64,000 nucleotides of DNA. Origin: a bacterium (GTDB lineage: Bacteria; Chlamydiota; Chlamydiia; Chlamydiales; 2-12-FULL-49-11). Every line of letters begins with the position of its first letter. Positions within the stretch are counted from its first letter, which is position 1. Below the pieces are notes generated by a model. That model made no database searches and was not told the origin of the DNA. It worked only from the letters and a program-made list of their open reading frames with translations. The stretch lies in contig JAJZEO010000132.1 of NCBI GenBank assembly GCA_021847505.1, forward strand, positions 815-64,814. The letters are read 5' to 3'. This document shows, piece by piece, positions 989 to 3,287 of the stretch. A program made the translations under genes and the position numbers.

Positions 989-2137
989 ATGTTTGAAAAG
1001 CTCACACAAAAATTTCTTGCTGCTCATGGCATTGCTCGAACTGATGCCCCAAAGCTCTATGCCGAATCGTTTCCTTATCTAGACCTACCTTCTTTAAACT
1101 TTCAAGAGGCTACCACTCATATCCTTCATCATCTCTTGGGCCCGCAAGTCGAGTGGAAACTGGTCCCTAGAGGAATTCTTACAGGCAATGCGGATGATAC
1201 TACTGTTGTTAGAGCCGTTGTTGATCATAAGGTCTACTACCTTAAATTCACCAAATTGCTAAGAGTTCAATTAGGGATGCTATTCGCCCATTCTTTTTTT
1301 ATTGATCAGCCTCACCCCTTCTGCTCTACAGCAACTATCGTGTCCCATGGATTGACCACAATAAAAAATAAAACAGACTATTATTTTATGTTACTTGAGG
1401 AAGCTCAAGGTGAGGACTTGATTAAGGCTTTTAAGGAAAAAAATGACGATATCATTATTCCATATGTAGAAACACTTGCAAAAACATTGGCCCATAATCA
1501 TTCAATTGATGTTTCAAAAGCACCCGCGACTAGCAAACTCTTTTACGCAACAGAAAGAACAAATTTTCATATCCAAAGGATTCTCAGATTATCCAATGAA
1601 TCCACTGATGATCCTTCTCTTAATTTTGCCATTCAATCTCTACTCCCTTTTCTTTTTGATCAACAAAATCAATACATGAAGGCCACTCAATCTCAATGTT
1701 TCTCTATCTGTGCCCTAAAGAACTCAAATCTCGCCTTTTCAAAGCAGCAAAACAAACTTCTTATGTTTGATACTACCGTTTTCTTTAATTCTTGCAGCCC
1801 TTCTCGGTCTCCCCGTTGGGCTCCTGAATCGAATTTTGCCACCTCTTTTCACCACCTTGAATTTCTCGAACATTACCTCGATCTGGATCCTTCGAAGATG
1901 GAGGGATATCGGGACCACTTTTTGCGCACTTACTACCAAAATATCCAACACCCTATCATGACGGCTCAAGGATTGAATTTATTTACGGCCCAAGCCTATT
2001 TAGAATCGGTCAAGAACTTCCTTGCTTTTAGAAATAAGACCAATCAATTTCAGGAAAAGGCACTCAAGATGATCTCTCAATTTGGAGAGATGTCAAAACG
2101 GGGAAATCCCAAAATTGGAAAACTATTAGGTTATTAA
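989..2137 (+). CDS. hypothetical protein, tandem paralog 1; kinase/phosphotransferase-like motif pattern without a catalytic Asp (function uncertain)
   Basis: Long ORF. Start moved to ATG 989 because the alignment with paralog 2 begins there (MFEKLTQKFLAAHGI vs MYRELTDQFLAAPGI). Landmarks: HKVYYLKFT (beta3-Lys-like), YFMLLEEAQGEDL (hinge-like), ALKNSN (xLKxxN catalytic-loop-like with Asp replaced by Ala), LLMFDT (DFG-like). The CDS is confident; the fold assignment is a guess. Confidence 0.6.
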   Translation: MFEKLTQKFLAAHGIARTDAPKLYAESFPYLDLPSLNFQEATTHILHHLLGPQVEWKLVPRGILTGNADDTTVVRAVVDHKVYYLKFTKLLRVQLGMLFAHSFFIDQPHPFCSTATIVSHGLTTIKNKTDYYFMLLEEAQGEDLIKAFKEKNDDIIIPYVETLAKTLAHNHSIDVSKAPATSKLFYATERTNFHIQRILRLSNESTDDPSLNFAIQSLLPFLFDQQNQYMKATQSQCFSICALKNSNLAFSKQQNKLLMFDTTVFFNSCSPSRSPRWAPESNFATSFHHLEFLEHYLDLDPSKMEGYRDHFLRTYYQNIQHPIMTAQGLNLFTAQAYLESVKNFLAFRNKTNQFQEKALKMISQFGEMSKRGNPKIGKLLGY

Positions 2138-2138
2138 A

Positions 2139-3287
2139 ATGTACAGAGAATTAACAGATCAGTTTCTCGCTGCACCGGGGATAAGGCGTGAAGACAATGT
2201 AATTGAATATGCAAACTCTTTTCCTCATTTGGATATTTCTTCTCTTGATTTTCAGGAGGGGGTCACCAAAATTCTCGATGATTTAGTCGGGCCTCAGGCT
2301 ATTTGGGAAATCGTCCCTAAAGGAGTGCATACAGGAGACAGCGATGATGCTATCGTCATCAAGGTCAAACAAGCTCGCCATGTCTATTACCTGAAATTCA
2401 CAACCTGTTTAAGGGTTCAGCTGGGAATGCTTTTTTCTTATGCCTATTACCATGATCATCCCCAACCTTTCGCCTCTACAGCAGCTGTTCTTTTTCATGG
2501 GACTGTCACCTTAAAGGGGGGACAAAACCAATATCTGATGCTCATTGAAGAAGCAAAAGGTGTCGATTTGTTCGGTGCTTTTGAGACCCGCGATCAGAAG
2601 ATCATTTTCTCCTATGTAGAAACTGCGGCAAAAGCTTTAGCCTACAATCATTTTTCTTATGTTTCTAAAGCTTTGCCGGCCGATAAATCTCGCTTTGCTT
2701 CAAAAAAGACAACGTCCATCCTCAAAAAAGCACTCCCCTTACACAAAAAGTCGATCCCTGATTGCCCTCTGAAAACTCCCCTTCAAACAGTCATGAATAC
2801 TCTTCTAGAATCCCATCAAAGTTACTTGAATACGCCTCAAGTGAGCTCTCTTTATCTAGGTTCAGCCAAAGTCTGGAATCTTTCTTTTTCCGACATTCAG
2901 CACAAAATCACCTTTTTTGACCCTCCTACCTTTTACAAATATTGTGGCCCCTCTCAACCTCCACTTTGGGCCCCCGAGATGTCCTTTATCAAATTTCTTC
3001 ATAGTCTAGACTTCCTTGAGCGCCGCTATAATTTTCATGCCTCAGAGATTGAAAAAATTCAGGATCATTTTTTGCAGACTTATTACTTAAATAGCCCCCG
3101 CTTAATCATGAGTCCTCAGGGATTGAAACTATACGAGACTCAGGCGTTTTTAGAATCGATCAGAAAGGCGATCAATCGTGTCCCCAAAAAGGAAGGCTCT
3201 TACGAAAACGCACTCCAGAAGATCTCTCAATTTCGTGAGTTTGCCAAACCGAATAGTCCACGAATGCAAAAATTAATGGGTTACTAG
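2139..3287 (+). CDS. hypothetical protein, tandem paralog 2 of 989-2137
   Basis: The ATG lies 1 nt after the paralog 1 stop. It is colinear with paralog 1 along the whole length (VYYLKFT, RVQLGMLF, YLMLIEEAKGVDL, SAKVWN, ITFFDP, LWAPE, C-terminal KLMGY vs KLLGY). Confidence 0.6.
   Translation: MYRELTDQFLAAPGIRREDNVIEYANSFPHLDISSLDFQEGVTKILDDLVGPQAIWEIVPKGVHTGDSDDAIVIKVKQARHVYYLKFTTCLRVQLGMLFSYAYYHDHPQPFASTAAVLFHGTVTLKGGQNQYLMLIEEAKGVDLFGAFETRDQKIIFSYVETAAKALAYNHFSYVSKALPADKSRFASKKTTSILKKALPLHKKSIPDCPLKTPLQTVMNTLLESHQSYLNTPQVSSLYLGSAKVWNLSFSDIQHKITFFDPPTFYKYCGPSQPPLWAPEMSFIKFLHSLDFLERRYNFHASEIEKIQDHFLQTYYLNSPRLIMSPQGLKLYETQAFLESIRKAINRVPKKEGSYENALQKISQFREFAKPNSPRMQKLMGY

Follow-up and report, generated by a model that had tools for sequence, protein, structure and literature searches.

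We analysed a stretch of 64,000 nucleotides (nt) from a bacterium of the Chlamydiales (GTDB lineage 2-12-FULL-49-11; assembly GCA_021847505.1, contig JAJZEO010000132.1, forward-strand positions 815 to 64,814), hereafter the window, and asked about the nature of two adjacent genes near its start, which we call X1 and X2. Both open reading frames (ORFs) encode proteins of 382 residues. The junction between them reads TAA-a-ATG, with a spacer of 1 nt, and the proteins align without a gap at 165 identical positions out of 382 (43%; BLASTP, E=8e-112), in agreement with a preliminary description, made from the letters of the window, that had singled out two neighbouring paralogs of about 382 residues. 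The TAG stop codon of X2 (3285-3287, plus strand) overlaps the stop codon of a convergent minus-strand ORF of 548 codons, H1 (3284-3286); the convergence on an array of HELLH genes with overlapping stops at 3284-3287, also noted in that description, is therefore real. X1 could also start at the TTG at 971, but all homologs open with M-[YF]-x-x-L, which favours the ATG at 989. The GC content of the two genes, 0.39-0.42, matches that of the neighbouring genes, and on this ground the idea of a recently transferred gene was rejected. No further copy of X was found within the window by tblastn, and both proteins recur unchanged in assembly GCA_027365995.1 and on several public metagenome contigs. 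A literature search on the assembly accessions identified SRP286056 as metagenomes of Polish wastewater and rivers. In the window, a promoter scan gave no more than the shuffled expectation and a terminator scan gave 0 sites.

The X genes belong to a conserved arrangement. In six genomes X lies directly 3' of glgC and on the same strand, and a metallophosphoesterase gene follows as the next conserved flank wherever the contig reaches that far. The number of X genes varies from one locus to another, as does the number of convergent H genes (Table 1).

The predicted fold is that of a kinase. The AlphaFold model of X1, obtained with a 15-sequence family alignment, had a predicted local distance difference test score (pLDDT) of 91.1 and a predicted template modelling score (pTM) of 0.90. 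An earlier model obtained from three sequences was of low confidence (pLDDT 61.6), and Foldseek already returned APH-type (aminoglycoside phosphotransferase-type) kinase families with it. With the final model, Foldseek gave 83 matches in the PDB at E<=1e-3, the best at E 3.8e-7, and the best 50 of the 83 were all APH-type or sugar kinases (probability 1.00, target-normalised template modelling (TM) score 0.41-0.66). The families represented in these 50 were APH(2''), APH(3'), APH(4), APH(9), macrolide 2'-phosphotransferase, maltokinase, glucosamine kinase, fructosamine-3-kinase and YtaA; they thus include aminoglycoside, macrolide and spectinomycin phosphotransferases. The N-lobe of the model runs in kinase order, with strands 55-58, 71-78 and 81-88, a helix at 91-106, strands 117-125 and 129-137 and then the hinge, and the C-lobe consists of helices, strand 235-238, a loop, strands 248-251 and 256-259 and a helical C-terminal region. 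The model therefore displays the features of a bilobal APH/choline-kinase-type fold, namely an N-lobe sheet, a helix C, a hinge, a helical C-lobe and a loop between strands 6 and 7. The preliminary description had suggested atypical kinase-fold proteins and had named a structure unlike a kinase as the outcome that would speak against this suggestion; the predicted structure is kinase-like, and the suggestion, made with low confidence from motifs matched by eye, is thereby supported. According to the model, X is of the small-molecule kinase (APH/choline-kinase-like) branch, and not a eukaryotic-type protein kinase.

We then examined which residues are kept within the family. The alignment comprised 16 members, with identities down to about 20%: ten from a glgC-linked clade and six from a sister clade. 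Six of the 382 columns were invariant (G66, K86, G121, A139, N247 and D261), and all of them except G121 match elements of the nucleotide/Mg site of APH(3')-IIIa. The beta3 Lys, the catalytic-loop Asn and the DFG-equivalent Asp (K86, N247 and D261) are thus present in 16/16 members and stand at kinase places in the model. The chance that six random columns include these three named ones is about 2e-6, a figure to be read as a guide and not as a formal test since the trio was chosen by motif resemblance. The sequence of APH(3')-IIIa that we used was checked to be identical to 1j7i_A. With hhalign, the X family aligned to it at E=0.023 and to a two-APH profile at E=0.011, weak values that concern the N-lobe and the hinge, with the X/APH(3')-IIIa pairs T-G66/E-G25, YYLK86FT/LYLK44MT and EEA139QG/SEA93DG; a Smith-Waterman comparison with APH(3')-IIIa recovered the hinge segment (z=4.1). 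All the motifs quoted in the preliminary description (VYYLKFT, the hinge, ALKNSN/SAKVWN, MFD/FFD and K(L)(L/M)GY) were present, in the kinase order that it had assigned to them. The hinge-like motif is YYFMLLEEAQGEDL in X1 and QYLMLIEEAKGVDL in X2, and the catalytic-loop-like segment at residues 242-247 is ALKNSN in X1 and SAKVWN in X2.

What is missing is the catalytic base. The position of the HRD/HGD Asp is indeed Ala in X1 and Ser in X2, as had been proposed, and neither protein has an acidic residue anywhere between 239 and 247. The same check on the orthologs gave a consistent picture: in the glgC-linked clade, position 242 is occupied by A, S, P, I, T, W, A, K, K and F, with Asp in 0/10, whereas three of the six more distant, sister-clade members (P0010, P0012 and P0015) have Asp there in a true D-x4-N, which reads L-G-D-L-H-L-A-N in P0012. 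The helix-C Glu follows a similar distribution, being found in 6/6 members of the sister clade (L-[KR]-E-Y) and in 0/10 of the glgC-linked clade, where M, I, A, T or S takes its place. X1 and X2 consequently lack a competent Brenner motif, H-x-D-x4-N with a helix-C Glu (A242/S242 and M97). With their predicted fold and these residues, they would be pseudokinases by the operational definition, which asks for a kinase fold in which one or more of three residues (beta3 Lys, catalytic Asp, DFG Asp) is absent. As far as the alignment tells, the glgC-linked clade has lost the putative catalytic base together with the helix-C Glu and has kept the residues predicted to hold the nucleotide and the metal.

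Table 1. Positions of the X genes, their key residues, and the neighbouring and related genes (window coordinates unless another locus is named).
Feature	Position	Strand	Basis or remark
X1, 382 aa, predicted APH-type kinase-fold protein	989-2137 (stop included)	+	ORF, AlphaFold, Foldseek
X2, 382 aa, paralog of X1	2139-3287	+	ORF, BLASTP vs X1
G66, T-G-x-S Gly-loop	X1 1184-1186; X2 2334-2336	+	16/16; hhalign to G25
K86, beta3 Lys in VYYLKFT	X1 1244-1246; X2 2394-2396	+	16/16; hhalign to K44; in strand 81-88
M97, helix-C Glu column	X1 1277-1279; X2 2427-2429 (also Met)	+	family alignment
A139, hinge EEAQG (X1)	X1 1403-1405; X2 2553-2555	+	16/16; hhalign to A93
A242 (X1)/S242 (X2), putative catalytic-base Asp position	X1 1712-1714; X2 2862-2864	+	5 residues before N247
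N247, catalytic-loop Asn	X1 1727-1729; X2 2877-2879	+	16/16; directly before strand 248-251
D261, DFG-like Asp (MFD X1, FFD X2)	X1 1769-1771; X2 2919-2921	+	16/16; directly after strand 256-259
Loop after D261, residues 269-280, APE-like end	X1 1793-1828 CSPSRSPRWAPE; X2 2943-2978 CGPSQPPLWAPE	+	family alignment
C-terminal K-L-[LM]-G-Y	X1 2120-2134; X2 3270-3284	+	kept in closest orthologs
glgC, 3' part	77-712	+	upstream of X in every genome examined
H array, three HELLH genes	3284-8224	-	ORFs, tblastn
H1	3284-4930	-	
H2	4927-6579	-	
H3	6557-8224	-	
Metallophosphoesterase, conserved downstream flank	8359-9117	+	start from homolog N-termini (MAIWAIADLH)
H homolog, L005	11153-12886		equivalent position
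H homologs, L013	10398-13716		equivalent position
H homolog, L019	2490-3674		equivalent position
Window locus			X=2; H=3
L005 locus			X=1; H=1
L007 locus			X=1; H=0
L012 locus			X=3; H=0
L013 locus			X=2; H=2
L019 locus			X at least 1; H at least 1
Sister-clade locus L008	1-4567		adjoins/overlaps Rieske/KshA_C genes
Sister-clade locus L009	116-2177		adjoins/overlaps Rieske/KshA_C genes
Sister-clade locus L016	6989-9182		adjoins/overlaps Rieske/KshA_C genes

Two other parts of the proteins are worth describing. In the loop that follows D261, P275 is present in 10/10 members of the glgC-linked clade, and P271 and E280 in 8/10 each. The consensus of this loop is C-(G/S)-P-S-x-x-P-x-W-A-P-E; its APE-like end lies 19 residues past D261 and is reminiscent of the activation segment of protein kinases. 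X2 reads T-F-Y at residues 264-266. At the other extremity, X1 ends in KLLGY and X2 in KLMGY, and the corresponding ends of the closest orthologs are KLLGG (L005) and KYLGY (L007). In APH(3') enzymes, the C-terminal carboxylate helps to bind the substrate.

The family is small and has escaped existing models. When 1.84 billion representatives were searched exhaustively with a profile, 15 proteins matched, of which 14 were credible and one (P0016) was spurious, being an unrelated repeat protein. A word-indexed search of 5.8 billion proteins recovered the query itself and one ortholog only, or three proteins only when the family profile was used, and a search for related loci with a three-sequence alignment recovered the L005 locus only. 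Neither X1, X2 nor any of 15 family members had a Pfam match at E<=1. The NCBIfam model APH_3p matched X over residues 126-199 at E=0.0047 and 16.5 bits, far below its curated cutoff of 205 bits, so that X belongs neither to Pfam APH (PF01636) nor to the NCBIfam APH families. The PADLOC defence models gave no match, and searches of PDB sequences, with the single protein or with the family profile, gave noise only. X is thus a small family without a name or a Pfam or NCBIfam model, confined to a handful of genomes, and we regard it as an undescribed degenerate subfamily of the APH fold.

Within this family the sequences have changed rapidly. Among the five genomes compared, identity amounts to 69-81% for GlgC and 67-75% for the phosphoesterase, but only 20-49% for X. 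Orthologs of X of equal length are present in six genomes. The two X paralogs of L013 are closer to each other (41%) than to the copies of any other genome; therefore, the duplication was independent in at least this lineage. On the other hand, the single X of L005 is slightly closer to X1 and X2 of the window (49% and 45%) than X1 is to X2 (43%), and therefore the duplication in the window lineage predates or accompanies the split from L005. The intergenic region between glgC and X1 (713-988) is 276 nt long in the window, versus 41-54 nt in the other genomes, and it holds repeated strings resembling 'atcctgttt'; it may be the remnant of an insertion or a lineage-specific promoter.

The H genes that face X encode proteins of about 535-580 residues with an HExxH motif. 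They are always convergent to X and meet the last X gene at its 3' end, with or without an overlap, an arrangement found in four of the six genomes. Their divergence is also high, since complete H proteins of different genomes are 24-42% identical and adjacent copies in the window reach about 45%. H2 is broken by one in-frame TAG (5908-5910) at a position where its paralog H1 has Trp, consistent with a TGG to TAG change, and tblastn with H1 crosses this stop as a single high-scoring segment pair of 537 residues at 44.5% identity; either H2 is a pseudogene or the stop is an error of the assembly. With the TAG read as Trp, H2 reaches the Pfam family Peptidase_M91 (PF14891) over residues 183-294, the HExxH included, with 25.1 bits for a cutoff of 25 bits (E=2.5e-5). 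The other six H proteins had no match to Peptidase_M91 in Pfam, and a profile of the H proteins gave only noise against PDB sequences. Among five aligned H proteins, the HExxH is invariant, and the invariant columns include H276, E277, H280, E325 and Q326. As described in a passage of PMC13325838, the M91-family metalloprotease NleD is a type III effector whose substrates JNK and p38 are cut in the activation loop, within the TXY motif.

The sister clade has other neighbours. Its loci adjoin or overlap genes for Rieske/KshA_C oxygenases, and one of its members without the Asp, P0014, is encoded in the same assembly as the window, on another contig, where it overlaps a split Rieske/KshA_C gene. 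At L016, the locus in the window's assembly, the Rieske gene is in two parts, and L008 also holds a gene resembling steroid reductases (Steroid_dh, PF02544). The neighbourhood of the sister clade may be an operon for sterol or lipid modification.

How does X compare with characterized kinases? The best structural matches are APH enzymes (APH(3')-IIIa, 1j7i; APH(2'')-IVa, 5c4k; APH(4)-Ia, 3w0r), which share with X the Gly of the Gly-loop, the beta3 Lys in (L/Y)YLK(M/F)T, the E-A-x-G of the hinge, the catalytic-loop Asn and the metal-binding Asp. They differ from X at the catalytic Asp, D190 in APH(3')-IIIa, which would correspond to Ala or Ser in X, and at the helix-C Glu, which is Met in X. 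X is also the larger protein (382 residues versus about 260-300), being extended by about 50 residues at the N-terminus and having a longer helical region at the C-terminus. The maltokinase Mak/Pep2 (4u94, 4o7o, 5jy7) and a glucosamine kinase (6hwl) are of the same fold class and among the top matches. Mak is linked to glycogen through the GlgE pathway, and X through its position next to glgC. However, Mak and the glucosamine kinase are active kinases by description, they have no detectable sequence similarity to X, and X is missing from nearly all genomes that carry glgC.

Kinase folds with degenerate active sites are also known outside this class. SidJ of Legionella is a kinase-fold 'pseudokinase' that is encoded beside the SidE-family effectors, which it regulates, and that carries out glutamylation. 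The SidJ/SidE pair offers a possible analogy for an X gene beside M91-like genes, although X also occurs without H. In 2018, Sreelatha et al. reportedly demonstrated the AMPylation activity of SelO. In the passage of PMC3281104 devoted to it, SelO is a kinase-like fold without the classic HRD Asp, which is argued to keep an atypical active site and for which activity is predicted. SelO nevertheless lies on another branch of the superfamily, has no sequence match with X and is widespread across life, whereas X is present in few metagenome-assembled genomes. By sequence, X is a member of neither the SelO nor the SidJ family (no Pfam match). Finally, Pkn5 is a chlamydial kinase-like protein that is regarded as a pseudokinase and an effector and is present in 93% of chlamydial genomes (PMC8242063). 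The possibility that X is Pkn5 was rejected: Pkn5 is a core chlamydial gene (PMC8242063), whereas X is lineage-restricted, has an APH-type predicted fold and no match to the Pkinase family of Pfam, and lies beside glgC.

Altogether, we propose that X1 and X2 are a tandem pair of paralogs from a fast-evolving, lineage-restricted family with an APH-type kinase fold, and that, judging from the model and the alignment, they are probably nucleotide-binding pseudokinases or atypical transferases. G66, K86, A139, N247 and D261 would correspond to the elements that place ATP and Mg2+ in APH(3')-IIIa and in protein kinases, and their conservation suggests that X still binds a nucleotide and a metal. 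Ordinary base-assisted phosphoryl transfer, by contrast, would be beyond its reach. With the nucleotide kept and ordinary transfer lost, X would therefore be either a nucleotide-dependent, non-catalytic binder or regulator, or a transferase with an atypical chemistry. The role of X is more likely to be accessory and specific to the lineage, probably in host interaction, than to belong to core metabolism, because the genes were repeatedly and independently duplicated, diverge far more than their flanks, occur in few genomes and frequently have M91-like neighbours. X may be an effector and may have a non-canonical chemistry, the latter being a possibility that the preliminary description had raised.

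Several observations weigh against this proposal. The binding of a nucleotide is suggested by residue conservation only, and the pocket is putative. In the C-lobe, the Smith-Waterman comparison with APH(3')-IIIa was not significant, so that the links to APH are weak and concern the N-lobe and the hinge. We do not claim an equivalence of D190 and A242 from this pairwise alignment; position 242 would be the site of the catalytic Asp according to the in-family alignment and the predicted secondary structure. The N-terminus of X is structured and conserved (pLDDT about 95), unlike a typical type III secretion signal, which is a weak argument. Moreover, X lies 41-54 nt past glgC in the relatives, and 54-55 nt before the phosphoesterase gene where H is absent, and this short spacing equally suits an operon-encoded metabolic protein.

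The main rival reading makes X an active kinase of metabolites that uses a non-canonical base. Such an enzyme would do without the Asp, its mechanism being substrate-assisted, dissociative or dependent on another residue, and its place would be in the metabolism of carbohydrates or nucleotide sugars, alongside glgC and the phosphoesterase. The presence of maltokinase and glucosamine kinase among the fold neighbours argues for it, as do the invariance of the nucleotide-site residues and the short same-strand gaps to glgC and, in L007 and L012, to the phosphoesterase gene. The translational coupling of the sister clade to Rieske/KshA_C genes is also what one would expect of a metabolite kinase. 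Some function is also reported, in a passage of PMC3281104, to persist in HER3 and in a mutant of EGFR in which the position equivalent to Asp166 of PKA is altered. However, the ten residues found at position 242 are mostly different and unrelated, which leaves no conserved substitute for the Asp, and the helix-C Glu is gone. A metabolic role beside glgC is also difficult to reconcile with the absence of X from almost all genomes that carry this gene (15 matches among 1.84e9 representatives), with its rate of change in identity, 2-3 times that of GlgC and the phosphoesterase, and with its variable copy number. We therefore consider an active metabolite kinase unlikely. At the opposite extreme, the X genes could be the decaying remnants of a kinase under relaxed selection. 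The high divergence, the loss of two canonical residues and the nonsense codon in the neighbouring H2 could be taken in this sense, but both ORFs are intact at 382 residues and gap-free at 43% identity, orthologs of the same length exist in six genomes, the nucleotide-site residues are invariant over a very deep divergence and the coevolution signal was strong enough for a pLDDT of 91; decay is thus barely credible.

The remaining alternatives assign X a more specific task on a protein. By analogy with SelO (AMPylation) or SidJ (glutamylation), X might be an atypical transferase in which the retained Lys, Asn and Asp bind ATP in an altered orientation, with a protein as the target of modification. 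The residue pattern agrees with what a passage of PMC3281104 says of SelO, and the activation-segment-like loop (CGPSxxPxWAPE) is strongly conserved. However, there is no detectable sequence kinship to SelO or SidJ, Pfam gives 0 matches and the nearest folds are ordinary APH-type kinases, so we give this alternative only a slim chance. Slightly better placed, if still quite unlikely, is the possibility that X is a kinase-fold partner of the M91-like H proteases, as a decoy, inhibitor, chaperone or meta-effector. Indeed, convergent H genes abut or overlap the last X in 4/6 genomes, X and H are both tandem-expanded and both fast-diverging, the repaired H2 reaches Peptidase_M91, and characterised M91 proteases cut host MAP kinases in their activation loop, NleD doing so within the TXY motif of JNK/p38 according to a passage of PMC13325838. 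Yet X occurs without H in L007 and L012, the genes are convergent, not co-transcribed, and the M91 assignment is borderline, with no match for the other H copies. In its strongest form, this idea makes X and H a co-evolving host-interaction module in which X, binding a nucleotide and lacking the catalytic Asp, acts on or with the protease: X could mimic a kinase as a decoy or inhibitor, or could work like SidJ, as a meta-effector that alters the protease covalently by a non-canonical chemistry. Such a pairing of a pseudokinase and a protease would be new for intracellular bacteria; it is a slender prospect.

Kinase folds that keep a nucleotide site and lack a catalytic base have repeatedly been found to have an unexpected chemistry or a regulatory role, and the X family is a compact system for studying the use to which a degenerate kinase of the APH type is put. 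Its two clades provide a natural comparison, with the Glu, and sometimes the Asp, kept beside Rieske genes in one of them, and both lost in the other, where the genes are duplicated and lie beside putative effector proteases. Should the function of X be related to its neighbours, the family could bring to light a new relationship between a pseudokinase and a protease; should X turn out to be no more than a divergent metabolic kinase, the result would be a modest one.

A few other features of the window and of related contigs deserve mention. A gene for a DDE_3/HTH transposase stands beside secA in the window's genome (L001, 794-1837), about 8 kb upstream of the locus, and has no counterpart in the syntenic regions of L005, L007 and L013. 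Related contigs carry psd-secA and SET-domain genes; together with the polymerase I and Rho genes and the transporter described below, they suggest the genome of an uncultured, probably chlamydia-like intracellular bacterium. The window genes for DNA polymerase I and Rho are about 580 nt apart, with one short ORF between them, and a plus-strand gene at 24796-26508 encodes a fused ATP-sulfurylase/APS-kinase with a PUA-like domain, in an arrangement resembling PAPS synthase. A TLC ATP/ADP transporter, a hallmark of energy-parasitic obligate intracellular bacteria, is encoded at 30506-32083 on the plus strand (Pfam, E=1.9e-178).

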